The translations under genes were made by a program, and so were the position numbers. 64,000 bases of DNA from an uncultured bacterium (lineage in GTDB: Bacteria; Krumholzibacteriota; Krumholzibacteriia; LZORAL124-64-63), in NCBI GenBank assembly GCA_963732385.1, contig CAVSZB010000003.1:288985-352984 (forward strand), in the 5' to 3' direction. Positions 2,238-47,967 of this stretch are shown here, one piece after another (position 1 is the stretch's first letter; each line of letters begins with the position of its first letter). The notes under the pieces were generated by a model. The model worked only from the letters and a program-made list of their open reading frames with translations. It searched no databases and had not been told where the DNA came from.

Positions 2238-4155
2238 TGGCCGACAGGAACAGCTCCCCGTACCGCGCCAGCTTCGTCTCCCCGACTCCCTTCACCTCGA
2301 GCAGCTCCGCTTCGTCGCGCGGCTTCAGGCGCGCCATTTCGCGCAGCGTGGCGTCGGAGAAGACGACGTACGGTGGCACGCTCTCGCGCTGGGCGATTTC
2401 GCGGCGCAGGGCGCGCAGCCGCTCGAACAGGTCGGTGTCGACGCCGCTCCACTCCGCGCCGGCGTGGGTGGCGGCCGCGGCGCGCTTGCCTTTCGCCCCT
2501 TTCCTCCCCTTCGGCACCGGCTCTTTGCCCTCCGCCCCGCGCCAGAACCGCGTCAGGCGCGGGGCCTCCTGGCCTTGCAGCACGGCGCGCCCCTGCTCGG
2601 TCACCCGGACGATCGGGAAGCGGCGGGCGCCGCTGATCTTCTCCACCATCTCGAGGGCGTTCTGGGCGATGAGCTGGTCGATCCAGGCGCGCACGGTGGC
2701 GTCGGACTCGTCGCGCAGCAGGCCGTGGACCGACAGTTCGTTGTGGCGCAGGTCGCGGATCCGCTCGCCGTCGCTGCCGCGCAGGACCGCGGTCACGTGC
2801 GCGGCGCCGAAGGTGCTGCCGGTGCGCAGCACCGCCGAGAGGACTTTCTGGGCGGCGACGAGCGCCTCGCCAGCGGCCAGCGCGATGGTCTCGCCGAGGC
2901 AGACGTCGCAGGCATGGCAGTTGTCGGCTTCGCCCGGGACCGGCGCGGCGGGGGGCGGCGGGGCGCCGGCGTCGTCCGTCGGCGGCGGCCAGGGGCGCCC
3001 GAAGTGCTCGCTCAGCAGGCGGTGCCGGCAGACCGGCGCCACGGCGAACCGCGCGATCTGCGCGAGTTGCCGTTCAAGCGCGTTCTTCCGCTCCTCCGGC
3101 AGCGGGCCGTCCATTTCGGCCAGACGGCGGTGCGCCTGCAGGTCGGCGGCGCTGTAGAGGAGCGTACAGTCGGCCGGCAGGCCGTCGCGGCCGGCGCGCC
3201 CCGACTCCTGCTGGTAGTGCTCCACGCTGCGCGGCGCGTTGGCATGGATGACGAAGCGGACGTTCGAGCGGTCGATGCCCATGCCGAAGGCGATCGTCGC
3301 CACCACGACGGCGAGGTCCTCGTTGAGAAACGCCGTCTGCGTGGCGGCGCGCTCGGCCGCGCCGAGGCCGGCGTGGTAGGGGGCGGCCCGCACGCCGGCT
3401 CCCTGCAGGCGTGTGGCGATGCGCTCGACCTCCCGCCGCGTCTGCGCGTAGACGATGCCCCCCTCGCCGGCGTGGCGGCGCACCGCGGCGAGCAGCTGGA
3501 TGTCGGTGTCGTGCCGCGGGAACGCGCGATAGACGAGGTTGGGACGGTCAGGGTGTCCGATGAGGACGAGCGGGTCGCGCAGCGCGAGCTGCTCGATGAC
3601 GTCGCGTTGGACCGCGGGCGTGGCCGTGGCGGTGAGGGCCATGCGCGGGACGCCTGGCGCCGCCGTGAAAAGTGGCGCGAGCTGCCTGTACTCGGGCCGG
3701 AAATCGTGTCCCCAGTGCGAAACGCAGTGCGCCTCGTCCACCGCGATCAGACCCAGGCGGGGCGCGAGCGCCTCCATCAGGTCGCCGAGCACGAGACGCT
3801 CCGGGCTGGCGTACAGCAGTTGCAGGTCGCCGGAGACCGCGTCGCGAAAGGCGCGGGCACGCTCCGCGGCGGCGAGATTGCTGTGCAGCGAGGCGGCGGT
3901 CAGGCCGGCCTGGCGCGCCGCGGCCACCTGGTCGTCCATCAGGGCGATGAGCGGCGACACGACCAGCGTCAGCCCCGCGCCGGCGGCGGCCGGCAGCTGG
4001 TAGCAAAGGCTCTTGCCGCCGCCGGTCGGCAGGACGACGAGCGCGTCGCGCCCGGCAAGGGAGGCCTCGACGGCGGCGCGTTGCAGCGGGCGAAAGGTCT
4101 CGTAGCCCCACACGCGGCGCAGGACAGCAGCCGGATCGGCGCGATGGTCGCTCAC
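2227..4155 (-). CDS. recQ: ATP-dependent DNA helicase RecQ.
   Basis: GYETFRPLQRAAVEA...VVLPTGGGKSLCYQLPA...DEAHCVSHWGHDFRPEY helicase motifs, an RQC region, and a C-terminal HRDC domain (YVVFSDATLREMA...VKGVGETKLARYG). Confidence 0.9.
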   Translation of the reverse strand: MSDHRADPAAVLRRVWGYETFRPLQRAAVEASLAGRDALVVLPTGGGKSLCYQLPAAAGAGLTLVVSPLIALMDDQVAAARQAGLTAASLHSNLAAAERARAFRDAVSGDLQLLYASPERLVLGDLMEALAPRLGLIAVDEAHCVSHWGHDFRPEYRQLAPLFTAAPGVPRMALTATATPAVQRDVIEQLALRDPLVLIGHPDRPNLVYRAFPRHDTDIQLLAAVRRHAGEGGIVYAQTRREVERIATRLQGAGVRAAPYHAGLGAAERAATQTAFLNEDLAVVVATIAFGMGIDRSNVRFVIHANAPRSVEHYQQESGRAGRDGLPADCTLLYSAADLQAHRRLAEMDGPLPEERKNALERQLAQIARFAVAPVCRHRLLSEHFGRPWPPPTDDAGAPPPPAAPVPGEADNCHACDVCLGETIALAAGEALVAAQKVLSAVLRTGSTFGAAHVTAVLRGSDGERIRDLRHNELSVHGLLRDESDATVRAWIDQLIAQNALEMVEKISGARRFPIVRVTEQGRAVLQGQEAPRLTRFWRGAEGKEPVPKGRKGAKGKRAAAATHAGAEWSGVDTDLFERLRALRREIAQRESVPPYVVFSDATLREMARLKPRDEAELLEVKGVGETKLARYGELFLSAIRG

Positions 4156-4350
4156 GGGAAATCTCCAGTCCGGGAGGACGTTGGGCGCGGTGTCCGCGCG
4201 ACTGGCAAGGAACCACTCCGGCGGCTCCGGGGCAAGGGGGGATCCTGGGGACGAAGGTCGGGGGTGGGTGGGGCGGGGGGTGGGTTCCCCCGGATACAGT
4301 TGCGGAAGCGGGAAGTGCGCAGGCTGAGGTGTGCGACATGGATTTTTGGT

Positions 4351-4497
4351 GCATCCAAATAGCCGTTGCTACGGAAGCAAAAAGTGCGCAGCGACGTTTG
4401 CCGGGAAGCGCGGGTTCCGGTCGCGTGGTATCGGGGTCGCTGTGGCGCCATGGGGCATGCAAAACAATTGCTCCCGTAGCAACGGCTATTTGGATGC
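4351..4497. repeat. 147 bp element bounded by perfect 24 bp terminal inverted repeats (gcatccaaatagccgttgctacgg / ccgtagcaacggctatttggatgc). It could be MITE-like or a large structured regulatory element.
   Basis: The arms at 4351-4374 and 4474-4497 are exact reverse complements separated by 99 bp. The element lies in the divergent recQ-clpB intergenic region. Confidence 0.5.
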
Positions 4498-4742
4498 GCC
4501 CGAAATCGCTCCGCGCCCCTGTCGGTTCGTGTGTCATTATGACATGCCAGTTCGTTTGTGCCGCGCCTGTACTGGTCCCCTCAGACGCCGATCCGGCGAT
4601 TCCACGAGCAGGCCTCCTGATTGTAAGTATATTATCGACATATTATTGCGAATTAGTCGGGCAGCAGGCCTCGCGCACGGCATGCCGGGTGCAATTGCGT
4701 CCGGACGCGGTGTCGGGGCGCCGCAGACAGGGAGTCGCTGAA

Positions 4743-7346
4743 ATGAAAAACTGGACCGTCAATGCCGCCGAAATCCTTCAGCAGGCCCAGAGCCGGGCCT
4801 ACGAGATGGGTCATCCGGAGCTGGAGCCGGTCCATCTGCTCGACGCCATGCTGGCCGAACCGGGGCTGGCCTCCCAGACATTGCGCGCCCTGGAGCGTGA
4901 TCCGCAGCTCATCGCGCGTACCGTGACGCAGGAGTTGAAGTCCCTGCCGGTGGCGCAGGTGAAGGAGCTGCCGACGTCCAGCCCCGAACTGCAGAAGCTG
5001 CTGCTGGAGGCGCAGAGCCTGGCGCCAAAGAGCGCGGGCGGCCTGGTCGGCACGCGCGAACTGCTGCTCGCTCTGGCGGCGGACAAGGGGCGCGCCGGCA
5101 GCGTGCTGCGCACCTTCGAAGTCACGCCCGACAAGGTCGCGCGGGCGTTCGCGCAGACCGGGGCCGCCGACACGTCGTACGCAGGAGGCGAGGAGGGCGA
5201 GGCCGGCAATGGGCAGAAGTCGGCGCTCGACCTGTACGCGCGCGATCTCTGCGCGCTCGCCCGGCAGGGGAAGATCGACCCGGTCATCGGGCGCGACGAG
5301 GAGATCCGGCGGGTGATCCAGATCCTCAGCCGACGCACCAAGAACAACCCGGTGCTGGTGGGATCGCCCGGCGTCGGCAAGACCGCCGTCGTGGAGGGGC
5401 TCGCCCGCCGGCTCGTCGAGGGGGACGTGCCGGAGGGGCTGAAGGGCAAGCGTCTCTTGGCGCTCGACATGGGCGCATTGGTGGCCGGCACGAAGTACCG
5501 CGGCGAGTTCGAGGACCGGCTCAAGAAGGTCGTACAGGAGGTCGTCGAGCAGGAGGGTGAGATCCTGCTGTTCATCGACGAGATGCACACGCTCGTCGGG
5601 GCGGGCGCGGCCGAGGGGGCGCTCGATGCGTCGAACATCCTCAAGCCGGCGCTCGCGCGCGGCGAGCTGCACTGCGTCGGGGCGACGACCGTGGAGGAGT
5701 ACCGGCAGCACATCGAGAAGGACGCCGCCCTCGAACGCCGGTTCCAGCCGGTGCCGGTGGAGGAGCCGACGAGCGAGCAGGCAATCGCCATCCTGCGCGG
5801 GCTCAAGGAGAAGTACGAGGTGCACCACGGCATCCGCATCTCCGACGGCGCGATCGTGGCGGCGGTGAAGCTGTCGCAGCGCTACATCAGCGATCGCATG
5901 CTGCCCGACAAGGCGATCGACCTGATGGACGAGGCGGCCTCGCGGCTGCGCATGGAGATCGACTCGGTGCCGGGCGAGGTGGACGACCTGCAGCGGCGCA
6001 TCAACCAGCTGGAGATCGAGCGGCTGGCGCTGGCGAAGGAGACCGACCGCGGCGCCGTAACGCGTCGCGAGACCATCGACCACCAGCTCGTCGAGCTGCG
6101 CGAGGATCTGGCGAAGCTGCGCGCGCGGTGGGAGGAGGAGAAGGAGGCGATCGACGGCATCCGCAAGCTGCAGGAGCAGATCGAGCGGCTCGGTGTCGAG
6201 ATGGAGGCGGCCGAGCGGCGGGGCGACCTCGCGCGGGCGGCCGAGCTCAAGTACGGGCGCAGGACGCAGATCGAACGCGAAATCGTGGATGCCAGGGCGC
6301 GCCTGGTCGCGGTCCAGGGCGACAATGCGCTGTTGAAGGAGGAGGTCGGCGAGGACGACATCGCCGAAATCGTGGCGCGGTGGACCGGTATCCCGTCGCG
6401 GCGGCTGGTGGAGGACGAGACGCAGCGGCTGCGCGAGCTGGAATCACGGCTCGAGGCGCGCGTGGTGGGGCAGGACCACGCGGTCGAGCGCATCGCGCGG
6501 ACGATCCGCCGCTCGCGCGCCGGGTTGACCGACCGCAACCGGCCGCTCGGATCGTTCCTGTTCCTCGGCCCGACCGGCGTCGGCAAGACCGAACTGGTGA
6601 AGGCGCTCACCGCCGAATTGTTCGGCGACGAGAAGCACCTCGTGCGGCTCGACATGTCGGAATACATGGAGCGTCACGCCGTGGCGCGGATGATCGGCGC
6701 GCCTCCAGGCTACGTCGGGTTCGAGTCGGGCGGCCAGCTCACCGAGGCGGTGCGCCGGCACCCGTACAGCGTCATCCTGCTCGACGAGGTCGAGAAGGCG
6801 CACCCCGAAGTGATGAACATCCTGCTGCAGCTGCTCGACGACGGCCGTCTCACCGACGGGAAAGGGCGCGTCGTGGACTTCCGCAATACGCTCGTCGTGA
6901 TGACCTCGAACCTGGCGCAGGACGCCGCCTTCGAGGCGCGGCCGAACGCCGGACCGGAGGAGGAGCGCGAGGCCGAGAAGCGCCTGCTCGATGCTCTCGG
7001 CGGCCACTTCCGCCCGGAGTTCCTCAACCGCGTCGACGCGATCGTGCGTTTCCACGGACTGACGCGCGCGATGATCGAAACCATCGTCAGCCTGGAACTG
7101 GCGAAGGTGGGCCGCGCGCTCGCGGAGCAGGAGCTGCGCCTCGAGGCGACGCCGGCTGCCGTGGCGCGCCTGGCCGAACTCGGCTGGGACCCGGCGTTCG
7201 GAGCCCGGCCGGTGAAGCGGGTCATCCAGCGCGAGGTGCAGGACCGCATTGCGGACCTGATCCTGGCCGGAGGCGCGCACCCGGAGCAGCTGCTGGTGCT
7301 CGACGTGGCTGGCGACGACTTCATGTTGCGGGTCGCCGGGCCGTGA
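4743..7346 (+). CDS. clpB: Chaperone disaggregase ClpB (AAA+, two nucleotide-binding domains).
   Basis: [19 protein letters not shown]...[43 protein letters not shown]...[19 protein letters not shown], with a long coiled-coil middle domain. The track ORF starts at 4329, but the start homologous to ClpB is the ATG at 4743. Confidence 0.95.
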
Positions 7347-7363
7347 CCGGCCGGCCCGACGCG

Positions 7364-7388
7364 GGTGATCGGCCATGGCCCGATCACC
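7364..7388 (+). terminator. GC-rich hairpin (9 bp stem, ggtgatcgg/ccgatcacc) 18 nt after the clpB stop; putative intrinsic terminator without a U-tract.
   Basis: Read directly from the sequence: ggtgatcggccatggcccgatcacc. A second short hairpin overlaps the stop itself. Confidence 0.35.
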
Positions 7389-7592
7389 GTGATGACCGCC
7401 GCCTCCTTCTACTTTGTCGTCGAGAATCACAATCGCAAAATATACGACAATTTGGTATGGCTTCTGCAATCAGGATGGCCAATAATGGCTGAATTGTACG
7501 TCTGAAGTTCGGGCGACCTATTGCAAGTCCGCTGTTATCAGGTTTTTGTCGGCCAGGGCGCCAGAACCCCCCTCGCGAAGGAAACGGTCATC

Positions 7593-8921
7593 ATGGAACT
7601 GCCCGGGCTCTACAGCCGTGCATTTTATTGCCGCGGCGGCGCTGTTCTGGCCACCGTGCTGGGGATCATGGCGGTGGCCGGAGCGGCCGGGGCCGGTGAG
7701 CTGCAGCTGCTCACGCCGGAGCCTTCGTGGAGCTTCGGCCTGCGCTCGACCGGCTACGCCTTCCAGACGGAGGACCGGCTTGGCGCGGGCGCCGACCAAT
7801 TCCGCTTCTACCAGCAGTTCGCGGGCAGCGCGACGGGGTTGGCGGGGGGGCGGATCACGTTGCGAGGGTCGGGTCGTCTCGCCAGCAGTCCGGCTTCGTC
7901 GTCGACCGACTTCACGAACGCGCGGCTCTACACCGGCTATCTCGAGGCCCGTCTCGCGCCGCGGCTGCGCGCGCGCGTCGGCCGGCAGTTCCTGCAGAGC
8001 GGCGTTGCCGGTCTGACGCTCGATGGTGCATCGCTGACCTGCGGTTTGGCGCGGGGGTCCGAGGCTTTGATCTGGGGCGGCGCGCGGGCGCCGTCGGGCA
8101 ACACGTATGCGTTGGGCAGATTCGACGAAGAAATTGCCGCCGGCGGCCGATTCAGGCTGGCGCTGGCGCCGGCGCACCGGCTCGGGTTTTCCGGCGCCTA
8201 CCGCGAGCGGGACGGAGTCGTGAGCGAGCGTCCGGTCGGGTTCGAGTACACGACGACGGCGGTCCGCCACCTGCGCGCCCTCGCGCGGGCGGCCTACGAT
8301 CTGGAAGGCGATCGCTGGGCGCGCCTCGAGGCACAGGGCACGTGGCAGGTCGCGCCGCAGCGCCCCGCCGTAACGCTGCAGTTCATGGATCGCCACCCCT
8401 CCGTTGACGCGGCGTCTTGGTTCGCCCGTTTCGTGGATGTGAAGCGGATCCGGCTGGCGCGCGGCGCGGTGCGCTGGGAGCAGCGCTCGCGCTACGGAGG
8501 CGAACTGGAGTATATGGGTTCCTTCGTCGACACGCGCGCCTCGTCGCGGGTGGGGTTGGCGCTGCTGATGCCCAACGCCCGCCTTGGCTACTCGGTGCGG
8601 TTCGGCGACGCAGGCGAGGAGAACAGCCTCTACGGCGAGGCGGGCTGGCAGGCCGCCCCGTGGTTGCGTCTCGAGGGGGAGGCGTCGTACCTGACCTACG
8701 CCCTGATCACCGACGCCCCCGCGTCGGACGAACGGGATCTCACCACGCTCGCGGCGCGGTTTTGCGCCCGGCTCCGTCCCGGCCTGGATGTCACGGCCGA
8801 GGTGCAGCGTCTCGACAATCCGCTCTACTCGAGCGATATCCGTTTCCTGCTGGGCGTCGATCTGGCCATGGCGCGCGGGACTTCGCGCTACGGCCTCGAC
8901 CGGGGAGGCTGGCTGCGATGA
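7593..8921 (+). CDS. Outer-membrane beta-barrel protein; candidate porin of a porin-cytochrome (Pcc-like) conduit.
   Basis: Signal peptide (MELPGLYSRAFYCRGGAVLATVLGIMAVAGAAGAGE), alternating amphipathic beta-strand pattern, and an aromatic C-terminus. Its stop overlaps the start of the following cytochrome gene (ATGA). Confidence 0.6.
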   Translation: MELPGLYSRAFYCRGGAVLATVLGIMAVAGAAGAGELQLLTPEPSWSFGLRSTGYAFQTEDRLGAGADQFRFYQQFAGSATGLAGGRITLRGSGRLASSPASSSTDFTNARLYTGYLEARLAPRLRARVGRQFLQSGVAGLTLDGASLTCGLARGSEALIWGGARAPSGNTYALGRFDEEIAAGGRFRLALAPAHRLGFSGAYRERDGVVSERPVGFEYTTTAVRHLRALARAAYDLEGDRWARLEAQGTWQVAPQRPAVTLQFMDRHPSVDAASWFARFVDVKRIRLARGAVRWEQRSRYGGELEYMGSFVDTRASSRVGLALLMPNARLGYSVRFGDAGEENSLYGEAGWQAAPWLRLEGEASYLTYALITDAPASDERDLTTLAARFCARLRPGLDVTAEVQRLDNPLYSSDIRFLLGVDLAMARGTSRYGLDRGGWLR

Positions 8922-9790
8922 GGTTGCCGATCATCCTGACCGTAACGTTGCTGGCCGCGGGCGCGGCGGCGGCCGCCGAGACCGTTCAGCCGGACCGCCT
9001 CGTCATGCCGCACCGCACGCACTTCGAGGCCGGCGTCGAGTGCGCGACCTGCCACGCAGGGGTGGCCGAATCGCGCAGCGCGCGCGACAACCTGCGCCCC
9101 GGCATGGACGACTGCGGCGCCTGTCACGACATCGCTGACGACACAGGCTGCGCCACGTGCCACACGAACGTCGATGCGATCGAGCCGGTCGCGCGCCCGG
9201 CGTTCCCCGCGGAAAAGTTCGCTCACGCCGCCCATCTCGGTCGGAACATGGCCTGCGCCGCCTGCCACGGCGATCCGGCCGTGGTCGCGCCGCGGCTCCC
9301 GGCCAAGCCCGACTGCCGCGTCTGCCACGCCACCGCCGACGACTACGGTGACTGCCGCCTCTGCCACGCCGACCGCGCGAACCTGCGTCCGGTCTCGCAC
9401 GGCGCCTTCTGGGCGAATCGCCACGGCGGCCAGGCGCGCGAAAACGCGGCGCTCTGCGCCACCTGTCACACGCAGACCTCTTGCCAGACCTGCCATGCCG
9501 GCGACAACGTCCGCCCGCGGACGCATCCCCTGAACTTCGTCTTCAATCACGGCATCAGGGCGCGGGGCAACGAGCAGGACTGCGCCACCTGCCACGGCGA
9601 GCCGGAATTCTGCAGCTCCTGCCACGTCGCCGAGCGGGTGTTGCCCGACAGCCACTCGCGGGCCGGCTGGGTCCGCCTGCCGGACGGCGGCCGGCACGCC
9701 GTCGACGGCGTTTTTGAAATCGAAAGCTGCATCGCCTGCCACAGTGACGGCAAGGGCGCACCGACCTGCGCCGCCTGCCACGGAGGCTGA
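8918..9790 (+). CDS. Periplasmic dodecaheme c-type cytochrome (12 CXXCH motifs in ~290 aa).
   Basis: Signal peptide MRLPIILTVTLLAAGAAAAAE, then CATCH, CGACH, CATCH, CAACH, CRVCH, CRLCH, CATCH, CQTCH, CATCH, CSSCH, CIACH and CAACH counted directly. Confidence 0.85.
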   Translation: MRLPIILTVTLLAAGAAAAAETVQPDRLVMPHRTHFEAGVECATCHAGVAESRSARDNLRPGMDDCGACHDIADDTGCATCHTNVDAIEPVARPAFPAEKFAHAAHLGRNMACAACHGDPAVVAPRLPAKPDCRVCHATADDYGDCRLCHADRANLRPVSHGAFWANRHGGQARENAALCATCHTQTSCQTCHAGDNVRPRTHPLNFVFNHGIRARGNEQDCATCHGEPEFCSSCHVAERVLPDSHSRAGWVRLPDGGRHAVDGVFEIESCIACHSDGKGAPTCAACHGG

Positions 9791-9795
9791 GCCGC

Positions 9796-11556
9796 ATGAC
9801 ACATCACGACAGACTTGCGTTGCCGCCCCGCCTGGCTCTGCTGCTGCTGGCCGGCCTGGGGCTGATCGCGCTGGCCGGCTGCGCGGAGCGCGACGTCGAT
9901 CCCGATTTCGGCGCCCATCCCGCGGACTGGAACCGGACCGCCTCGCCCGATTTCCACGGCGAATACGTGAAGGCGAGGGGGCTGACCTCCTGCCGGAGTT
10001 GCCATGCGTTCGACCTGCACGGCACCGCCGACGTTCCGGGTTGCTACGCCTGCCACGACGGGCCTGGCGGGCATCCGGTCGGATGGTCTGCGGCGCAGGC
10101 TCATGGCGTCGAGGTGAGCACGAACGGTTCGTCCACCTGCGCCGTCTGTCATGGCGATGACTACCGCGGGGGCTGGAGCGGCGTCTCCTGCTACACCTGT
10201 CACGACGGCCCCACCGGCGCCCATCCCGACGGGTGGGCCGACGCGAGCCAGCACGGCGTCTTCGTGCACGACAACAGCGCCTCGTCGTGCACCATGTGTC
10301 ACGGTGCCGACTACCTCGGCGGCACGAGCGGAATCTCCTGCTTCACCTGCCACGACGGGCCGGGCGGCCATCCGGTCGACTGGGCTCTGCGCGTCAATCA
10401 CGGGGCGGACGTCGTTGCGAACGGCTCCACCTCCTGCACCGCCTGCCACGGCGCCGACTATCTGGGCGGCTGGAGCACCGTCTCCTGCTACAGCTGCCAC
10501 GACGGCCCCACCGGCGCCCACCCCGACGGCTGGGCCGACCCGGCGCAGCACGGCGTCTTCGTGCGCGACAACAGCGCCTCGTCGTGCACGACGTGCCACG
10601 GCGCCGACTACCTCGGCGGCACGAGCGGAATCTCCTGCTACACCTGTCACGACGGTCCGGGCGGCCATCCGGTCGACTGGGCGCTGCGCGTCAATCACGG
10701 GGCGGATGTCGTCGCCAACGGCTCCACCTCCTGCACCTCCTGCCACGGCGCCGACTACCTGGGTGGATGGAGCACCGTCTCCTGCTACACCTGTCACGAC
10801 GGCCCCACCGGCGCCCATCCCGACGGGTGGGCCGACGCGAGCCAGCACGGCGTCTTCGTGCGCGACAACAGCGCCTCGTCGTGCACGACGTGCCACGGCG
10901 CCGACTACCTCGGCGGCACGAGCGGAATCTCCTGCTACACCTGTCACGACGGTCCGGGCGGCCATCCGGTCGACTGGGCGCTGCGCGTCAATCACGGGGC
11001 GGATGTCGTCGCCAACGGCTCCACCTCCTGCACCTCCTGCCACGGCGCCGACTACCTGGGTGGATGGAGCACCGTCTCCTGCTACACCTGTCACGACGGC
11101 CCCACCGGCTCTCACCCCGACGGGTGGGCCGACCCGGCGCAGCATGGCGCGGCGGTCCGCTTGAGCGGCGCTTCATCCTGCACGTCATGTCACGGCGCGG
11201 ATTATTTCGGCGGCACGAGCGGGGTGTCGTGCTTCACCTGCCACGACGGCCCGGGCGGCCATCTGGTCGGCTGGGTCGATCCCGCCAACCACGGCATTGC
11301 GGTGGTGAACGAAAGCGCCCTCGACTGCCGGACCTGCCACGGCACCGACTACAGCGGCGGCTGGAGCACGATCTCCTGCTACACCTGCCACGACGGCCCG
11401 GGTGGCCACCCCGTGAACTGGCGGCGGAGGTCCCTGCACGGAGTCTACGCCGACACATACGGCACCCACGAGTGCGCGGCGTGCCACGGGCAGGACTTCC
11501 GTGGCAGCTGGACCGGCGTTTCCTGCTACCAGTGCCACGACGGGCCCAATCCCTGA
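9796..11556 (+). CDS. Lipoprotein multiheme c-type cytochrome with 22 CXXCH motifs arranged as repeated paired-CXXCH modules.
   Basis: Lipobox LAGC. Repeated modules of the form SCT(S/T)CHGADYLGG(W/T)S.(V/I)SCYTCHDGP(T/G)G.HP. There is a GGAGG RBS 9 nt upstream of the ATG. It starts 6 bp after the stop of the preceding cytochrome gene. Confidence 0.85.
   Translation: MTHHDRLALPPRLALLLLAGLGLIALAGCAERDVDPDFGAHPADWNRTASPDFHGEYVKARGLTSCRSCHAFDLHGTADVPGCYACHDGPGGHPVGWSAAQAHGVEVSTNGSSTCAVCHGDDYRGGWSGVSCYTCHDGPTGAHPDGWADASQHGVFVHDNSASSCTMCHGADYLGGTSGISCFTCHDGPGGHPVDWALRVNHGADVVANGSTSCTACHGADYLGGWSTVSCYSCHDGPTGAHPDGWADPAQHGVFVRDNSASSCTTCHGADYLGGTSGISCYTCHDGPGGHPVDWALRVNHGADVVANGSTSCTSCHGADYLGGWSTVSCYTCHDGPTGAHPDGWADASQHGVFVRDNSASSCTTCHGADYLGGTSGISCYTCHDGPGGHPVDWALRVNHGADVVANGSTSCTSCHGADYLGGWSTVSCYTCHDGPTGSHPDGWADPAQHGAAVRLSGASSCTSCHGADYFGGTSGVSCFTCHDGPGGHLVGWVDPANHGIAVVNESALDCRTCHGTDYSGGWSTISCYTCHDGPGGHPVNWRRRSLHGVYADTYGTHECAACHGQDFRGSWTGVSCYQCHDGPNP
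10201..11100 (+). repeat. Intragenic tandem repeat with period 297 bp (99 aa, 4 heme motifs per unit). There are three near-identical copies, with diverged copies on both flanks.
   Basis: The unit cacgacggccccaccggcgcccatcccgacgggtgggcc... recurs at 10201, 10498, 10795 and (diverged) 11092. Copies 2 and 3 are almost identical at the nucleotide level. Confidence 0.8.
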
Positions 11557-11614
11557 CGCACGGCGGCGGCGGCGTGTCCCGATCACGGACGCGCCGCCGC
11601 CGGTCGCCGCGTCC

Positions 11615-14023: not shown

Positions 14024-14143
14024 GCGTCTGCCGCTCAAGCCAAGTCGCAATTTGACGAATACTTCCCTGTCATGGTCTCGAAACACCACATGGGGAGTGC
14101 GGGAACGTTGCGTCCACGGGGCAGGCGCCTATTTACGCCTGTT

Positions 14144-15379
14144 ATGGCTGAGGCGCGCGCGGCGCCGCTCGTGGCGCTGGCCGTTGCGCTGGCGGCGTTG
14201 GCCGGCGCATCCACCGCGTGGACAGCCCAGGAGCCCGCGGACAAGGATCCTGCCCTCTATTACTACCTCATCGCCGCGCCGACCGATGTGCGCGCCGTGG
14301 ACCATCCGAACGACAACGGCGGCACGATCATTGTCACCTGGACCCTCTCGGTCAATGACACCCCGGACGGCGGGATTGTCAGCGGCTATGTCGTTCGTCG
14401 GGCGCGGTCCGTGAACGGGCCCTATGAGGACGTGGGACAGACCACCGCGCGCTCCGACCGCTACATCGATTCGTCGGCGGGAATCAGCGTCCCGTTCTTC
14501 TACCGGGTCGATGCGCTGGCGGACGGCGTTGCGAGCCCTTCCGATCCCGTGGGGCCGGTCGTCTCGAGCTACCAGTGGTTCAACTGGGATCGCCTCAACC
14601 TCGCCGTACTGAGTTTGCTGCTTTCGGGCGCCGTGCTCTGGTGGGTGGATGCGCTGAAACGGGGGCGCACCGTAACCGTCCGCCGAATTCCTGGTCTCGA
14701 GGCGATTGGCGAGGCGGTCGGGCGTGCCACGGAAATGGGTCGCCCGATCCTGTTCGTGCCGGGGCTGCAGGACATGGACGACATGCAGACGGTCGCCGCC
14801 ATCACGATCCTCGGGCGGGTGGCCGCCATGACCGCGGAGTACGACGCGCACCTCGAAGTGCCGACCACGCGCTCGCTTGTCATGACCGCGGCCCGCGACG
14901 CGGTGCAGCGGGCCTGCCTGGGCGCGGGCCGTCCGGACGCCTTCAATCCGGAGTCGATCTACTACGTGACCAACGAACAGTTCGGGTACGTCGCCGCGAT
15001 CAACGGCGTGATCTGCCGCGATCGTCCCGCGACCTGTCTCTACTTCGGCGCCTTCTTCGCGGAATCGCTCATCCTGTCCGAGACCGGTCGCGGCGTGGGC
15101 GCCGTGCAGATCGCGGGAACTGCGGAGACGGCGCAGGTTCCGTTCTTCCTGGCCGCGTGCGACTACGTGCTGATCGGCGAGGAGTTCTACGCCGCGTCGG
15201 CCTATCTCTCGGGCGATCCCCGGCAGCTCGGCAGCCTGAAGGGGCAGGACACCGGCAAGGTGTTCGCGGCGGCCGCGATCGTGCTCGGCTGCCTGCTGGC
15301 GACCGCGGCCTCGCTGACCGGTTCGCGAACTTTGGAAGCCCTGGCCGGCGCGGTGCGCGCCGTATTCCGCACGCAATAG
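14144..15379 (+). CDS. Membrane protein with signal peptide, FN3-like ectodomain, one TM helix and a ~230 aa cytoplasmic domain; function unknown. It is the first gene of a four-gene membrane operon.
   Basis: MAEARAAPLVALAVALAALAGASTAWTAQEP signal peptide. IVTWTLS...GYVVRR...FFYRVDAL has an FN3-like pattern. The TM helix is LAVLSLLLSGAVLWWV. The track ORF starts at 14072; the true start is uncertain. Confidence 0.45.
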   Translation: MAEARAAPLVALAVALAALAGASTAWTAQEPADKDPALYYYLIAAPTDVRAVDHPNDNGGTIIVTWTLSVNDTPDGGIVSGYVVRRARSVNGPYEDVGQTTARSDRYIDSSAGISVPFFYRVDALADGVASPSDPVGPVVSSYQWFNWDRLNLAVLSLLLSGAVLWWVDALKRGRTVTVRRIPGLEAIGEAVGRATEMGRPILFVPGLQDMDDMQTVAAITILGRVAAMTAEYDAHLEVPTTRSLVMTAARDAVQRACLGAGRPDAFNPESIYYVTNEQFGYVAAINGVICRDRPATCLYFGAFFAESLILSETGRGVGAVQIAGTAETAQVPFFLAACDYVLIGEEFYAASAYLSGDPRQLGSLKGQDTGKVFAAAAIVLGCLLATAASLTGSRTLEALAGAVRAVFRTQ

Positions 15380-17960: not shown

Positions 17961-21286
<3,326 letters not shown>

Positions 21287-21287
<1 letters not shown>

Positions 21288-22399
21288 TACTCCCTCACCA
21301 CCCTGTCGCCGTCGGCGAGCGGCTCGGCTGGCGCCACGGCGAGCGTTTCGCCGCCCGCCAGCCCGGACAGCACCTCGATGCGGCCCCCCTCGGCGCGGCC
21401 GAGACGAATCCAGCGCAGGGCGACGACGCCGTCCGCGCCCAGCACGTACACTCCGCGCAACTGGCCGCGCACCACGATGGCGGCCTCCGGCACCAGTACC
21501 GCGTCACGGCGTCCGGTCGCCACGAGGACCCGGGCGAACATGCCCGACTTCAGGCGCGCGTCGGCGTTGGGCACGAATATTTCGATGTCGAAGGTGCGGC
21601 TGCCGGGGTCGGCCGCGGGGACGATCTTCAACACGGTCGCGCGGAAAGTCGCGCCGGGGAGCGACGTGACCTCGACGGTGACGCTGTCGCCGATCGCGAT
21701 CGAGTTCACGTCCTTCTCGCCGACCCGCGCCACGATCTTCATGCGATCCACCTGCTCCACCGAGACCAGCGGCATGCCGGGGCTGGCCATGTCGCCCGGC
21801 TGGACCGATTTGCGGACCACCAGCCCGGCGATGGGGGAGACGATGTCGAGGTAGCGCAGGTGGTCGGCGATCTCGTCGCGTCCGGCCTGCGCGGCGGCGA
21901 GGCCGGCCCGCGCGCGGTCGCGTCCGGTGAGCACGTCGTCAAGCTGCTGCTTCGAGACCGCCTTCTCGGCGTAGAGCTTCTCGAAGCGGGCGGCCATCTT
22001 CTCGGCGTTCGCCACCACGGCGGTCGCTTCGGCAATCCCGGCCTCGACCTGGGCCCGCTTCGCGCGCAGGTCGGCGTCGTCGATCGTCACGAGCGGCGCG
22101 CCGGCGCGGACCGTCTGGCCCTCCTCCACGTGCACGCGGCGGACCCAGCCCATCATGCGCGTGCTGATGTCGGCGCGGGCGGCGGCGTGCACGGAGCCGG
22201 TGGCGGTCACGACGATCGGCACCTGGGTCCGTTCGGCGGTCGCCACGGCGGCGCGCACCTCGCGGTGCGTCGGCGCGGGGGCGCGCGACTCGTGCCCACA
22301 GCCGGCGACGAGCGAGCCGAGGGCGGTCGCGGCAAGGATCAGCACGGCGGCGGCCGCGTGGCGGGTCGAGGTGGTCCGGATCGGGGTGAGGAAACTCAT
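21287..22399 (-). CDS. Efflux RND periplasmic adaptor (membrane fusion protein, HlyD family), lipoprotein.
   Basis: Lipobox LVAGC, a coiled-coil hairpin, and barrel-sandwich/beta-barrel regions. Its stop overlaps the RND start by 1 nt (TAATG). Confidence 0.85.
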
Positions 22400-22405
22400 G
22401 ACTGT

Positions 22406-23812
22406 CTACTCCTCCCCGGCGCGCGGCACGGCGCCGGTATAGCTGAGACGGGCCAGTCCTACATTGTAGTCGTGCAGGGCCTGCACGAGATTGCCCTCCG
22501 CGCCGGTGGCGGCGGCCTGGACGTCGAGCAGGTCGATCATCGAGGCGAGCCCCTCGCGGTGCTGACTGGTGACGATGCGCAGGCCCTCGCGCGCGGCCGA
22601 GACCGCCTCGCGCGCGACCTGCACCTTCTCGGCGGCGGCCCCGGTTTCGAGGCGGGCCTGGGTCGCCTCGACCCGCGCGCGGCGCAGGTCGAAGTCGTAC
22701 ATGTGCTCGGCGGCCCGCTGCTGCGCGCGGGACGTTTTCACGCGGCCCCAGTCCTCGAGGCCGGAGAAGATGTCCCAGGTGGCGTACACGCCGAGCGACC
22801 AGCTGGTGGCGTCGTTCGCGAAAAGTGTCTGTCCGTACCAGTCGCGCTGCAGGCTCAGGTTGACGTGCGGCAGCAGGGCTCCGCGTGCCACGCCGACCAT
22901 GCGCGCGGCGGCCTCGGCCCGCTGGCGGCGCGCGAGCACATCGGGCCGGAACGCGACCAGGTCGGCCCCGGCCGCGCCGGTGGCCGGCGTCCGCGAGGGA
23001 TCGACGAAGCCGTCGGCGGGGGCGAGCGGCAGGTCGGTGCGCAGCGCGGTGAGCAGCTTGATGTTTTCGCCCGCGATGGCGATCAGGTTGCGCACCTCGA
23101 TCAGCTTCTGTTTGACGCCGCCGAGGTAGACGCGCGCCTGCATCAGGTCGGCCTCGGTGGCCATCTCCGCCTCGACCATCGACTGCGCCTGGCGGGCATG
23201 AGCCTCGGCGGCGGCGACCGCGTCGAGCATGACCCGCTCGTACGCTTTCGCCAGCACCAGCCCCTCGCAGGCCTGGACGGCCTGGAATTCCACGGTCTGG
23301 GCGGCGCGGCGATAGTCGTGATCGGCGGCCCGGGCCATGGCGTCGGCGGCGCGCTTGCCATACAGCGCCATGCCGCCGTTGAAGATCGGCTGCAGCAGTT
23401 GCAGGCGGGTGAGGTTGTTCTCGGCCACCCCCGGATCGTTCAGTGTCGGCGGGTAGAAGTCCGCCTCGGTTACGCTGCGCTGCTGCAGTTTGTAGCCGAA
23501 GCTGCTGAGCGCGTCGTCCGAGCGCAGGAAAAATTCCGCGGCCTGCACGCGCGGCAGGAATCCGCGCCAGGCCCCCAGGGCGTCGCCGCGGGCCGCGTCG
23601 ACCATGGCCTCGCCGGCGGCGAGCATCTCATTGTGGGCCAGCGCCGCCGCCCTTACCTTTGCGAGCGTTACGTGGAGCGTGTCGTTGCGGATCGTGCCCA
23701 GATCTTCGGGCCGCGTTTCTGCGGCCCGCGACCGACCGGCCGGTGCCGCCAGCGCCAGGGCGAGGCCTAAAACCGCGGCGGTGAGGGGGAGGTTCAGCCT
23801 GGACTTCCTCAT
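22406..23812 (-). CDS. Outer-membrane efflux protein (TolC/OMF family).
   Basis: Signal peptide MRKSRLNLPLTAAVLGLALALAAPA. Duplicated alpha-helical/beta-strand repeats typical of the OMF family. It is the first gene of the tripartite efflux set. Confidence 0.85.
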   Translation of the reverse strand: MRKSRLNLPLTAAVLGLALALAAPAGRSRAAETRPEDLGTIRNDTLHVTLAKVRAAALAHNEMLAAGEAMVDAARGDALGAWRGFLPRVQAAEFFLRSDDALSSFGYKLQQRSVTEADFYPPTLNDPGVAENNLTRLQLLQPIFNGGMALYGKRAADAMARAADHDYRRAAQTVEFQAVQACEGLVLAKAYERVMLDAVAAAEAHARQAQSMVEAEMATEADLMQARVYLGGVKQKLIEVRNLIAIAGENIKLLTALRTDLPLAPADGFVDPSRTPATGAAGADLVAFRPDVLARRQRAEAAARMVGVARGALLPHVNLSLQRDWYGQTLFANDATSWSLGVYATWDIFSGLEDWGRVKTSRAQQRAAEHMYDFDLRRARVEATQARLETGAAAEKVQVAREAVSAAREGLRIVTSQHREGLASMIDLLDVQAAATGAEGNLVQALHDYNVGLARLSYTGAVPRAGEE

Positions 23813-23815
23813 GGT

Positions 23816-32483: not shown

Positions 32484-33776
32484 TTAGAAATTGAATCGAT
32501 CCCCGAACAGGAAGACGTTCTCGCCTTCGCGCGTGTGCGCGAGCTCGAATCGCAGGTTGAGCGACGAGAGATTGACGTGCACGCCCCCGCCCCAGCTCAT
32601 CAAAGGGGCGCCGGGATCGGCGCCGTCGTACCACGCATCGCCGGCGTCCCAGAAGAGATGCAGCCCCACGCCGATGACGTGGCCCTGGGGGGAAATCGGC
32701 ATCAGGAACAGCGGCCAGCGCAACTCGCCGCTCAGCAGCCAGCCCTCCTCGCCCTCGAGTGAAGCGTAGCGGTGGCCGCGGATCGTTTCAGGACCGGCCC
32801 AGTAGAGACGGTCCTCAAGGGGGACGGCGTGACTGACGCGGCGGCCGAAGGCGCGCAGCGCCAGCACCTTGTGCCAGGGCAGGGGGACGAACTGGCGCAG
32901 GTCGCCCGAGACCTCGCTGAAGGAGTCGAAGCCGTCGCTCATCGCACGGGTCGCGCGCAGCCGATGCCAGGCGCCGCGCAGCGGATAGAAGTTGAGGTCG
33001 CGTGAGTCGTAGCCGAGGGTCAGGCCGGCGGTGAAGCGGTTGCGGCAGCCGTGGACCCAGAGAAGGTAGCCGGAAGAGCCGTCGCCGCGGTCGGGAGCGG
33101 TCTCGAGCACGTCGCTGTGCTGGCGGAAGCCGAGCAGCGTGCCGTCGGCTTCCAGGTAGGCCGGTCCGTGCAGGCGCGCGCGGGCATGCAGGCCGGCGTC
33201 CCAGCGGGAGTACCTGGTCGGTCGCCAGACGAACTGCGCCTGTTCCCAGCCCGCGGACACGCCACCCTCCAGCCAGCGCCGGCCGGCGAGCCAGGGGCGG
33301 TCCCAGGTGGCCCGGTAACCGTGCACCCTGATCCAGGTCGCCTCGAGGGAGGTGTGCTCGCCCCGGCCACGCAGGTTCTTCTCCTCCACCCGCGCGCCGA
33401 GCCGGTACTTGTGGCGGCGGTCGTATTCGATGAGCGGGTAGTAGTGGAGGGTCTTGTCCTCCTCGACCATGATCGTGAGCGGCACGCGGCCGTCGTCCGT
33501 CTCTGCTTCCTCGGAGAAGTCGACGAAAGCGAAGTCGCCCAGATCCTCGAGGCGGTCCCAGGCCCGTTCCACGGCCCTGGCGTCCCAGGGGTCTCCCTCG
33601 CGAAAGCCGAGCTCGCGCAGGATCAGGCTGGTGGCGGTGCGGGTGTTGCCCTGGACGCTGATGGGGCCGAAGCGGCGGACGACGGAGTCCGCGGCCACGC
33701 TCGTGTCCGGTCGGATCGCGCCGGCAAGCACAAGCAGGCCGGCGTAAATGAGCACCAGGGGGCGCAATCGCAGCAT
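32484..33776 (-). CDS. Omp85-superfamily (BamA/TamA-like) outer-membrane protein with one POTRA-like domain and a C-terminal beta-barrel.
   Basis: Signal peptide MLRLRPLVLIYAGLLVLAGA. POTRA-like ISVQGNTRTATSLILRELGFREGDPWD. Aromatic-rich barrel ending ...FLFGDRFNF. Confidence 0.6.
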   Translation of the reverse strand: MLRLRPLVLIYAGLLVLAGAIRPDTSVAADSVVRRFGPISVQGNTRTATSLILRELGFREGDPWDARAVERAWDRLEDLGDFAFVDFSEEAETDDGRVPLTIMVEEDKTLHYYPLIEYDRRHKYRLGARVEEKNLRGRGEHTSLEATWIRVHGYRATWDRPWLAGRRWLEGGVSAGWEQAQFVWRPTRYSRWDAGLHARARLHGPAYLEADGTLLGFRQHSDVLETAPDRGDGSSGYLLWVHGCRNRFTAGLTLGYDSRDLNFYPLRGAWHRLRATRAMSDGFDSFSEVSGDLRQFVPLPWHKVLALRAFGRRVSHAVPLEDRLYWAGPETIRGHRYASLEGEEGWLLSGELRWPLFLMPISPQGHVIGVGLHLFWDAGDAWYDGADPGAPLMSWGGGVHVNLSSLNLRFELAHTREGENVFLFGDRFNF

Positions 33777-33822
33777 GGTGGAAGGCCCTTTCGGCAGTGG
33801 CGGAGGTTCGCCGACCGAGCCG

Positions 33823-34512
33823 TCATTTAACATGCGCCGGGGCGGGTTGTCCAGCCGGACGGGAGACTTCGCGGTCGCGCTCGGCGCCGGTCCGGTCGCA
33901 CGTCAACGCAATCAGGGCCACGCCCAGCTCGTTCCAGCCGCCGGAGAGATCGGCCGGCGTCAGATTCGCCGGCAGCAGGCGCGGGGGGAACGTCGCGTTG
34001 GCGGGATCGGCCAGCCGGACCTCGATGCGCGTCTGCAGCAGCGTGCCGAGCAGGCGACGGATGAATGCCTCGCCGGTCGTTTCGGCGTGCCGCAGGAAGA
34101 CGTCGTAGAACAGCGTGGGGGCGACGATGTGAAACGTGCAGCTGCCACGCGGTGCGTCGGTACGGCCGGCGGCCTCCGGCGGTACCGTCTCGCCCCAGCG
34201 ACAGGTCAGAGCCGTGTCGGTGGCGATCATGAAGAGCCGTCCGTCGGGCGGGACCTGCCCCGAGCCGTCGCCGACGCGCAGGAGATGCGATCCCTCGAAC
34301 CAGGTCGCGCGCACGGCGTGGTTGTGCGCCAGCAGCCCCGTCTGGCCCCGCGTCAACTGCAGGTGCAGGCCGCCTCCGGTGAACGACCTCAGCTCGAGCG
34401 GACCCTGCACCGCGCCATCGCGCGGGTCGAACGACCAGGGGGTAGGGGGGGCTGCATCGTCCGGCCAGACATCCCAGGTCGCGTTTTTCCGTTTGTTGCC
34501 GTGCGTGCTCAT
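33823..34512 (-). CDS. Hypothetical protein (229 aa), no confident family assignment.
   Basis: ATG with an AAGGAGAG RBS. MSTHGNKRKNATWDVWPDD.... It starts 24 bp after the upstream gene's stop on the same strand. Confidence 0.4.
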   Translation of the reverse strand: MSTHGNKRKNATWDVWPDDAAPPTPWSFDPRDGAVQGPLELRSFTGGGLHLQLTRGQTGLLAHNHAVRATWFEGSHLLRVGDGSGQVPPDGRLFMIATDTALTCRWGETVPPEAAGRTDAPRGSCTFHIVAPTLFYDVFLRHAETTGEAFIRRLLGTLLQTRIEVRLADPANATFPPRLLPANLTPADLSGGWNELGVALIALTCDRTGAERDREVSRPAGQPAPAHVK

Positions 34513-38710: not shown

Positions 38711-38910
38711 GCTGTTACCTCCTGGTTTCTTCACGTTTGCCGCTGGCTCCGCGGGGCGGGGCCGCGTTATCATGCTGGTTCAGGGATCGGGGCCGGAGCC
38801 GCTCTGTGTGGTTGGTGGCTTCGCGTCCCATGGCGTGGGGAATATCAAGGGGCGTGCCGTTCGGGGCGCGATTGGCCATTGCAGCGTAACACCATGAAGT
38901 AATTGTTTTT

Positions 38911-45389: not shown

Positions 45390-45571
45390 TGCGCTCCCTC
45401 GGCTCGGGGTGACGGAGTGGATATCGTCAAGAAGCCGGGGAGCTTGAGCGATTGAGGGGGTCGGAGTGGCGGGAGGATGTCGGCGCGCTTAGCATGCCCT
45501 CATCGGATAATGATTGCCGGCATCAATGCGTCGCCGGGCCGCGGCCCGGCGACGGAGGGAGGGCGATCCCC

Positions 45572-46324
45572 ATGTCGACGCGACGTGAATTCCTGGGTCG
45601 GACGCTCGCGACCGGAGGTCTTCTGGTACTGCCGGGATTGCTGCGCGCCGATCCCGCGCCGGCCCGCGTCTCCTCCGCCGGCGCCGCCCCGCCGGCCGGC
45701 GGCGGCGCGCCCGGTGAACATCAGTTGCCGCCGCTCCCCTACGCCTACGACGCGCTCGAACCGCACATCGATGCCCGGACCATGGCGCTCCACCACGACA
45801 AACATCACCTCGCCTACGTAAACGGCCTGAACGCCGCCGAGAAGGCGCTGGCCGAGGCGCGTGCCCAGGGCAGGTTCGACGACCTCGAGAAGCTGATGCG
45901 CCAGGTCGCCTTCCACGGCAGCGGCCACTACAACCACGTCGTGTTCTGGAACAACCTGCGCCCCGCCAGCCAGGCGAAGCCGCGCCCCGAGGGGGACCTG
46001 CTGCAGCGGATCGAACACGATTTCGGCAGCCTCGACGCCTGCAAGGCGCAACTGACTGCGGCCTCCGTGAAGGTGGAGGGGAACGGCTGGGGCGTGCTGG
46101 CCTGGCATCCCGGCTTCGGCACCCTGGTCACCCTCGCCTTCATGAACCACCAGAACTCCATGCAGAGCGCCACCCTGCCGCTCCTGGTCTGCGACGTCTG
46201 GGAGCACGCCTACTACCTGAAGTACGAAAACCGCCGCGCCGACTACGTGACCGCCTGGTGGAAAGTCGTCGACTGGGCCGACGTCGAGCGGCGCTTCGCG
46301 GCGGCGCGGGGACTGGTGATCTGA
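45572..46324 (+). CDS. sodA: Fe/Mn-type superoxide dismutase with an N-terminal twin-arginine (Tat) signal peptide.
   Basis: MSTRREFLGRTLATGGLLVLPGLL (Tat RR motif), then LPPLPYAYDALEPHIDARTMALHHDKHH...DVWEHAYYLKY with the metal ligands H, H, D, H. GGAGGGA RBS. Confidence 0.9.
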   Translation: MSTRREFLGRTLATGGLLVLPGLLRADPAPARVSSAGAAPPAGGGAPGEHQLPPLPYAYDALEPHIDARTMALHHDKHHLAYVNGLNAAEKALAEARAQGRFDDLEKLMRQVAFHGSGHYNHVVFWNNLRPASQAKPRPEGDLLQRIEHDFGSLDACKAQLTAASVKVEGNGWGVLAWHPGFGTLVTLAFMNHQNSMQSATLPLLVCDVWEHAYYLKYENRRADYVTAWWKVVDWADVERRFAAARGLVI

Positions 46325-47939: not shown

Positions 47940-47967
47940 GTTTGCGAGTCGCGAGGAGGACGCACGG

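Follow-up and report, generated by a model that had tools for sequence, protein, structure and literature searches.

A stretch of 64,000 nt from an uncultured bacterium of the Krumholzibacteriota (contig CAVSZB010000003.1, positions 288,985 to 352,984; hereafter the window) carries three consecutive genes, g1, g2 and g3, which probably form a single operon for an electron conduit of the porin-cytochrome (Pcc) type across the outer membrane. In all likelihood the triad is the form that the known porin-cytochrome wires, carriers of respiratory electrons over the outer membrane, take in an undescribed lineage, a reading that draws on gene structure, heme motifs, sorting signals, a structural model of the barrel, conserved synteny and the history of the g3 repeats. 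An earlier examination of the letters made without database searches, the sequence-only reading, had proposed a signal-peptide outer-membrane protein followed by a 12-heme cytochrome and by a lipobox-bearing 22-heme cytochrome, and counts of open reading frames (ORFs) and CXXCH motifs confirmed these three genes at the positions listed in Table 1. The Pcc gene order that it recognized was likewise borne out: the barrel is followed by a non-lipoprotein 12-heme cytochrome with a Sec signal and then by the lipobox cytochrome, and the barrel-cytochrome pair is kept across lineages of the FCB group. For neither Krumholzibacteria nor Eisenbacteria did we find a description of this triad in the literature; there were surveys of the FeGenie type only.

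The three genes are tightly packed. The stop codon of g1 and the ATG of g2 share the letters ATGA, with a GGAGG 11 nt before the g2 ATG, and only 5 nt separate the g2 stop from the ATG of g3, which also has a GGAGG upstream; the overlap and the short gap are thus present as the sequence-only reading had described them. The extreme heme density that it had pointed out was found as well, with one heme every 24.2 amino acids (aa) in g2 and every 26.6 aa in g3, and no ORF other than g2 and g3 has two or more CXXCH motifs in the whole 64-kb window, the G+C content of which is about 70%. On the 5′ side the triad is preceded by ClpB and a 246-nt spacer with a core of 43–45% GC, while on the 3′ side there is a convergent zinc alcohol dehydrogenase gene followed by a gene for a Fic/DeoR protein. 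The GC-rich hairpin lying after g3 (−49.6 kcal/mol, z-score −3.58, with none of 200 shuffled sequences folding as well) is probably a terminator without a U-tract. Bounded by ClpB and the spacer upstream and by the hairpin and the convergent gene downstream, the triad is a self-contained three-gene unit. A scan of the window against Rfam returned no RNA family.

Synteny is the strongest evidence for the conduit reading. We compared about 35 related loci from Krumholzibacteria, Eisenbacteria, Zixibacteria, Calditrichota and Fidelibacterota-like genomes, and in every one of them the barrel gene stands next to a gene for a multiheme cytochrome with 11–14 hemes, usually a 12-heme protein of about 290 aa; no barrel homologue lacking a downstream multiheme cytochrome was seen among the loci examined. 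The near family comprises 105 close barrel homologues, all annotated as 'hypothetical' and, where a label is given, assigned to Candidatus Krumholzibacteria, Eisenbacteria or Latescibacteria. In the 25 near-family loci, which were taken from species-representative genomes, the next gene always encodes an 11–12-heme cytochrome wherever enough sequence is available (12 hemes and 283–305 aa in nearly all). The most common junction between the two genes in this family is the ATGA overlap, which persists down to 44–50% barrel identity and is found also in one distant locus, L035. Where the sequence continues, the third gene encodes a g3-family lipoprotein in nearly all near-family loci, and the number of CXXCH motifs in it is 6, 10, 12, 14, 16, 18, 22, 24 or 26. 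The closest relative of the window in the genome collection is L031, with 95% barrel identity; in L031 and L029, both contigs of Microflora Danica metagenome-assembled genomes (MAGs), the g2 and g3 orthologues are split over several frames, most likely by assembly indel errors.

The same arrangement extends well beyond the near family. An exhaustive hidden Markov model (HMM) search with the barrel profile retrieved 653 representatives with an E-value of 1e-3 or lower, of which 254 lie at or below 1e-10, and 30 distant homologues sampled from the best 150 matches belong, where named, to Fidelibacterota, Zixibacteria, Calditrichota, 'FCB group' and Gemmatimonadota MAGs. At the distant loci (HMM E-values of 1e-50 to 1e-20; two of the five carry Zixibacteria or Calditrichota-related names) an 11–14-heme cytochrome follows the barrel in five of five cases and a further cytochrome gene is present in four. 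Among them, L032 carries ccm maturation genes and a g3 homologue of only 133 aa and 2 hemes, which brings the range of the g3 family to 2–26 hemes, and the partner cytochrome of L033 has 395 aa and 14 hemes. These data bear directly on the possibility that the linkage is accidental and that g1 is a generic outer-membrane protein which happens to lie beside two periplasmic cytochromes. The fact that g1 has no family annotation would leave room for such a coincidence, but the barrel adjoins the cytochrome in all of the about 35 loci, five distant subfamilies included, and because of this conserved synteny we consider accidental linkage to be effectively excluded.

The relatives also associate the triad with genes resembling those of quinol dehydrogenases. 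The Eisenbacteria-like loci (L003/L004, L006, L019–L021, L024 and L027) have three extra genes upstream of the barrel, encoding a NapC/NirT-like membrane cytochrome with five CXXCH and one CX3-4CH, an 11-heme cytochrome in fusion with cytochrome b (Ni_hydr_CYTB), and a 570-aa, 9-heme lipoprotein; the g3 homologue of these loci has 6 hemes only. A molybdopterin/FeS/NrfD module is found upstream of the barrel in L036. The NapC/NirT-like and cytochrome-b-fused multihemes resemble CymA, ImcH and CbcL, the quinol-oxidising entry points of metal reducers. With NapC/NirT-like, cytochrome-b-fused or molybdopterin/FeS/NrfD genes upstream, these loci thus contain the genes for the complete way between quinone pool and cell surface. 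In the Krumholzibacteria-like clade, to which the window belongs, there is the outer-membrane triad only, without the extra upstream genes, and g3 has grown to 10–26 hemes.

The association with these genes bears also on a rival reading that concerns the direction of flow. The same architecture could be used for electron uptake, with oxidation of extracellular Fe(II), reduced minerals, cathodes or partner cells, as in MtoAB and PioAB: heme chains conduct both ways and the sequence fixes no direction, homologues of Cyc2-type iron oxidases as well as oxidases have been reported in Krumholzibacteriota and Eisenbacteria MAGs (PMC9769843), and a CydA-like/c-type heme fusion encoded in the window beside a superoxide dismutase hints at an oxygen-exposed lifestyle. 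Uptake nevertheless seems unlikely to us, given that NapC/NirT-like and cytochrome-b-fused multihemes accompany the triad in the relatives and that MtoAB and PioAB have no large extracellular multiheme lipoprotein (PMC5566968).

The g1 protein starts with a hydrophobic, signal-like helix. No model of Pfam or NCBIfam matched it, and a profile built from 54 homologues had no match among the PDB sequences. The AlphaFold2 model, run with the alignment of the 54 homologues, has 22 antiparallel strands (mean pLDDT 86.9, pTM 0.76), close to the about 20 that the sequence-only reading had anticipated for a Pcc porin and outside the range of fewer than 14 that it took as speaking against one; the model has no plug or cork domain of its own. 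Along the strands the residues alternate between a hydrophobic and a polar face. When the facing was assigned by sequence parity, not by coordinates, the 136 residues predicted to point into the lumen included 29 Arg and 13 Glu, which suggests a hydrophilic, Arg-rich lumen. The isoelectric point (pI) of mature g1 is 9.6, against 6.25 and 5.5 for the acidic g2 and g3, respectively. In the fold search, the PapC usher scored 17.5, Occ porins about 17, 22-strand TonB-dependent receptors about 16.8 and MtrB (6r2q_B), at rank 34, 12.9; this ranking points to a wide barrel, the function of which cannot be assigned from its fold.

After the last predicted strand of g1 there is a low-confidence C-terminal tail of 14 residues (Table 1), strongly conserved family-wide with the consensus SRFGLDRGGWLR. 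In the DNA of the tail lie also the Shine-Dalgarno sequence of g2 (GGAGG) and its ATGA start, so that the conservation of the tail may reflect a translational-coupling signal, a protein contact or both. Two genes related to Omp85/BamA are present elsewhere in the window, one for a POTRA-Omp85 protein and one with a partial match to BamA (TIGR03303), and they confirm a diderm envelope with the insertion machinery needed for barrels such as g1.

The g2 protein has a Sec-type signal peptide that contains no cysteine and ends with AAAAA/ET, and it has exactly 12 CXXCH motifs. A search with g2 gave 554 matches, and among the matches listed the length is very uniform, about 285–305 aa. In an alignment of 53 homologues, nearly all the Cys and His residues of the 12 motifs are invariant or at least 90% conserved, and 10 further His, besides the 12 proximal ones, are invariant in the 53 sequences, which fits bis-His ligation. 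Pfam and NCBIfam returned only generic c7/c3 models for g2, comparison with the sequences of solved structures gave only weak matches, namely the ACIII pentaheme subunit and c7, and the fold search with the g2 model produced no informative match.

The g3 protein has a lipobox (L-A-G-C, residues 26–29) and exactly 22 CXXCH motifs, with no CX3-4CH. It is built of an N-terminal diheme module of 58 aa and 10 diheme modules of 49–50 aa, 11 in total, with the consensus DGPxG(A)HPxGW...HG...CxxCHGxDYxGG..SCYxCH. Each module contains two CXXCH and two further His, and its four His are enough for two bis-His hemes. Being an array of diheme modules, g3 is unlike the OmcB and MtrC types, as had been claimed from its sequence. 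A comparison with PF09699 (Paired_CXXCH_1) had also been proposed: on the whole protein Pfam reported c7/c3-type models only and PF09699 was not reported at E ≤ 10, whereas an isolated 104-aa super-repeat of g3 matched this family with 22.2 bits (E 1.2e-4), above the gathering cut-off of 20.6. The matches of g3 among solved structures (ankyrin, Fab) were rejected as spurious.

Two types of g3 module alternate to give a four-heme cassette of 99 aa, and the DNA identities between the cassettes (Table 1) indicate that the present length of g3 results from recent tandem duplication. The copy number should be read with the caution that a near-identical tandem repeat may be mis-assembled, yet 22–26 hemes recur in at least six independent loci. 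The best database match to the whole g3 protein has 44% identity, versus matches at 94% for the barrel, and the relatives of g3 have 18 hemes at a locus with 78% barrel identity and 10 hemes at L001 (66–69%). After the lipobox, the motif C-[AS]-E-[RK] is conserved in the g3 orthologues; in g3 itself the sequence is CAERDVDPD, acidic after the lipid-modified Cys, a stretch which may be similar to the export signals of Bacteroidota surface lipoproteins.

In the conduit that we propose, g1 would be an insulating 22-strand sheath with a hydrophilic, arginine-rich lumen, into which g2, a compact 12-heme periplasmic cytochrome, would thread as an insulated heme wire. The g3 lipoprotein, lipid-anchored at the outer face, would receive the electrons of g2, and its 22 bis-His hemes, strung as 11 diheme beads, would conduct them to partners that are insoluble or lie outside the cell, e.g., Fe(III)/Mn(IV) minerals, humics or cells of another kind or origin; the electron flow could also run the opposite way, inward. 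The length of g3 is set by tandem duplication of the four-heme cassette. In this scheme we infer the heme loading, the insertion of g2 into g1, the surface exposure of g3, the direction of the flow and the electron acceptor.

Some observations weigh against the proposed conduit. The lipobox does not tell which face of the outer membrane g3 occupies. The model of g2 is of moderate quality (pLDDT 75, about 60 in the C-terminal half) and was built without hemes, and for this reason the shape of g2 cannot be judged. No sequence or fold likeness to MtrA, MtrB, MtrC or any solved cytochrome conduit was found, the operon has no gene for an inner-membrane quinol dehydrogenase, and no NapC/NirT or CbcL-type gene was found in the window. 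Furthermore, Ignavibacterium album has a Pcc cluster, yet neither Fe(III) oxides nor Mn(IV) oxides sustained its growth (PMC4245776).

A different arrangement could be imagined in which g3 faces the periplasm on the inner leaflet of the outer membrane, g2 and g3 act as an electron store or relay for a reductase of soluble substrates, and the barrel is a channel for a substrate or product, e.g., polysulfide/S0, selenite or metal chelates. It would agree with the facts that a lipobox alone is no proof of surface exposure, that no surface-export machinery was identified, that the cluster of the window's clade has no inner-membrane or terminal-reductase genes and that respiration of Fe or Mn oxides is absent from some of the bacteria with Pcc. 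We hold it to be improbable, however, since across lineages the barrel gene has the g2 gene as its neighbour at every locus and is translationally coupled to it at most of them, since a barrel this wide with a cationic lumen would be oversized for a small-solute channel, and since the acidic stretch after the lipid-modified Cys of g3 may be a signal for surface export of the Bacteroidota kind.

The trans-outer-membrane conduit remains the preferred reading, and it can be set beside the systems already described. The gene order, from an outer-membrane protein resembling a porin through a periplasmic multiheme cytochrome to a lipoprotein multiheme cytochrome, is shared with the OmbB-OmaB-OmcB/pcc clusters of Geobacter sulfurreducens (PMC4245776, PMC4282303), a likeness by description only. 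Shi et al. (2014) used BLAST similarity to OmbB/OmaB/OmcB with E < 0.01 as the operational criterion for Pcc (PMC4245776), and the ranges of their 2014 survey, which are not strict rules, are 18–22 strands for the porin, 5–14 hemes for the periplasmic c-type cytochrome and 1–15 hemes for the outer-membrane one (PMC4245776). With 22 strands and 12 hemes, g1 and g2 fall within these ranges, whereas the 22 hemes of g3, a regular array of 49–50-aa diheme modules, exceed those surveyed. In Pcc systems the outer cytochrome evolves independently of the pair of porin and periplasmic cytochrome (PMC4245776), and the same is seen here, the barrel and the periplasmic cytochrome being kept together while the outer cytochrome varies freely. 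Unlike the Geobacter-type pcc clusters, the cluster in the window holds no transcription factor gene, and the named relatives of its barrel are all from the FCB group or Gemmatimonadota.

Homologues of a 'Geobacter-like pcc porin' have been reported in Ignavibacterium, Melioribacter and Caldithrix (PMC4245776; PMC6137239), and these FCB-group pcc clusters (Ignavibacterium album IALB_1839/1838/1837, Melioribacter roseus and Caldithrix abyssi) are from the same superphylum as the window. IALB_1838 (400 aa, 14 hemes) is close in size to the partner cytochrome of L033. Compared by description, the window's clade differs from these clusters in its fixed 12-heme partner and g3-type repeat lipoprotein. 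The distant relatives of the barrel in Calditrichota, Zixibacteria and Fidelibacterota MAGs keep the barrel-cytochrome pair and are from the same superphylum, which makes a remote link to the FCB pcc porins plausible.

Membership in other conduit classes was considered and rejected. Shewanella MtrCAB (PDB 6R2Q), MtoAB and PioAB share the logic of a heme wire sheathed by a barrel together with a surface lipoprotein cytochrome, but g1 has 22 strands against the 26 of MtrB (6R2Q), g2 and g3 have 12 and 22 hemes against the decaheme MtrA and MtrC, and there is no similarity. In the PCC3 clusters of Fe(II)-oxidising Proteobacteria a five-helix protein of the inner membrane is conserved, and the periplasmic cytochrome has 21 hemes as its median (He et al., 2017, PMC5566968); the cluster described here has three genes between ClpB and the alcohol dehydrogenase, without a five-helix protein, and g2 has 12 hemes. 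A fused porin-cytochrome of the Cyc2 type, in which the barrel protein itself has a heme-binding CXXCH at the N-terminus, was rejected because the heme motif is absent from the g1 barrel.

The region upstream of the operon (7400–7550) has a GC content of 43–45%, against about 70% for the window, in agreement with the AT-rich region noticed in the sequence-only reading. Short inverted repeats in this region had been proposed as operators, a suggestion that is supported only in part: the inverted repeat TTGTCGT/ACGACAA does exist; in L031 its arms read TGTCGC...GCGACA, changed on both sides with the complementarity kept. The conserved upstream features are a sigma-54-like −24/−12 element and an AATCAC repeat. 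An AATCAC-type direct repeat is present upstream of the barrel gene also in L031, L005, L016 and L025, and in degenerate form in L007. The candidate sigma-54 element of the window matches TGGCACG-N4-TTGCW at 11 of 12 positions with the correct spacing, and a score this high was reached by only 0.8% of the 460-nt stretches picked at random within the window. The same TGGTAT-N6-YTGC element precedes the barrel gene in L005, L016 and L025 and, in weaker form, in L018 and L031, and in an alignment of six loci neither its GG nor its GC dinucleotide varies. A scan for the sigma-70 consensus upstream of the operon, on its strand, found none. Genes for sigma-54 activators adjoin the triad in L001/L002, L006 and L035, and a search for the GAFTGA motif of such activators within the window gave none. 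That the operon has a regulated sigma-54 promoter is, from these sequence features, a reasonable hypothesis.

Table 1. Position of the triad, of its DNA elements and of other genes discussed in the text (window coordinates)
Feature	Position	Strand	Description
g1	7593–8921	+	442 aa, 22-strand outer-membrane beta-barrel (porin-like sheath, model), 0 CXXCH
g2	8918–9790	+	290 aa, predicted periplasmic 12-heme c-type cytochrome, coupled to g1 by ATGA
g3	9796–11556	+	586 aa, predicted 22-heme lipoprotein cytochrome, lipobox and diheme modules
Inverted repeat TTGTCGT-N23-ACGACAA	7414–7420 / 7444–7450	+	Encloses direct repeat AATCACAATCGCAAAAT
Candidate sigma-54 (−24/−12) element	7453–7468	+	TGGTATGGCTTCTGCA, 125 nt before g1 ATG
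g1 C-terminal tail	8876–8921		ARGTSRYGLDRGGWLR
Intragenic tandem repeat in g3	10042–11399	+	Tandem Repeats Finder: period 297 bp, 4.6 copies
g3 cassette 1	10204–10500		92–94% DNA identity to cassettes 2 and 3
g3 cassettes 2 and 3	10501–10797 / 10798–11094		98.0% DNA identity to each other
g3 cassette 4			About 74–75% DNA identity to the other three
GC-rich 15-bp hairpin	11565–11601	.	Between g3 stop and convergent alcohol dehydrogenase gene
DUF6754 membrane protein	14072–15379	+	379 bits
RND efflux operon	17961–23815	−	AcrB-family pump, HlyD-type adaptor, OEP outer-membrane factor
POTRA-Omp85 protein	32484–33902	−	
Partial BamA match	38890–40659	+	TIGR03303
Fe/Mn superoxide dismutase	45452–46324	+	Tat-like signal
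467-aa bd-like membrane protein	46536–47939	+	bd oxidase subunit I part and c-type domain
Multi-helix membrane protein	47746–49125	+	No family match

Other genes of the window and of its relatives deserve mention. The CydA-like fusion is a 467-aa membrane protein, the N-terminal part of which matches cytochrome bd oxidase subunit I (PF01654, 52 bits), followed by a C-terminal monoheme c-type domain (CNDCH; PF13442, 26.5 bits), with no NCBIfam match; the superoxide dismutase gene precedes it and the gene for the multi-helix membrane protein comes after it. This fusion could be a quinol:cytochrome c oxidoreductase of the bd superfamily and, as such, a candidate inner-membrane partner of the conduit, although there is no link between the two, which are 35 kb apart. 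In the RND efflux operon the AcrB-family pump is a stop-to-stop ORF of 1180 aa. The DUF6754 protein has an N-terminal extracytoplasmic domain, and its gene is followed by two ORFs without a family match. Adjoining the triad in L001 there are five short genes with weak or faint matches to Inhibitor_I10 (microviridin-type) at 6098–7750 (− strand) and then two genes for ATP-grasp MvdD-like ligases at 3895–5864 (− strand), probably a microviridin-like cluster for a ribosomally synthesized and post-translationally modified peptide, unrelated to the conduit.

Krumholzibacteriota and their FCB-group neighbours are uncultured bacteria common in sediments, soils and wastewater, and their role in metal and electron cycling has been inferred mostly from generic marker searches. 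The logic of the conduit is familiar; what is new is an unannotated, FCB-wide family of barrels and a putative surface heme wire of cassette-set length. We put forward tentatively, and with clearly less confidence than the conduit itself, the wider proposal that the barrel and its 12-heme partner may constitute an undescribed class of conduit across the FCB group, independent of the Geobacter and Shewanella classes. The surface part of such a class would be a single-chain heme wire whose reach, from 2 to 26 hemes, is set by gain and loss of diheme or four-heme cassettes, and the enlarged wire of Krumholzibacteria would stand in for the separate surface cytochrome of 9 hemes and for the inner-membrane genes, both of which the Eisenbacteria-like relatives retain in the cluster. 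A conserved, unannotated barrel with a 12-heme cytochrome as its constant companion would mark extracellular electron exchange specifically in these phyla. The g3 family would moreover offer a natural series of single-chain heme wires, of 2 to 26 hemes, made from one diheme module of 49–50 aa, which could serve to test how electron transfer depends on the length of the chain and could guide the design of synthetic protein wires.

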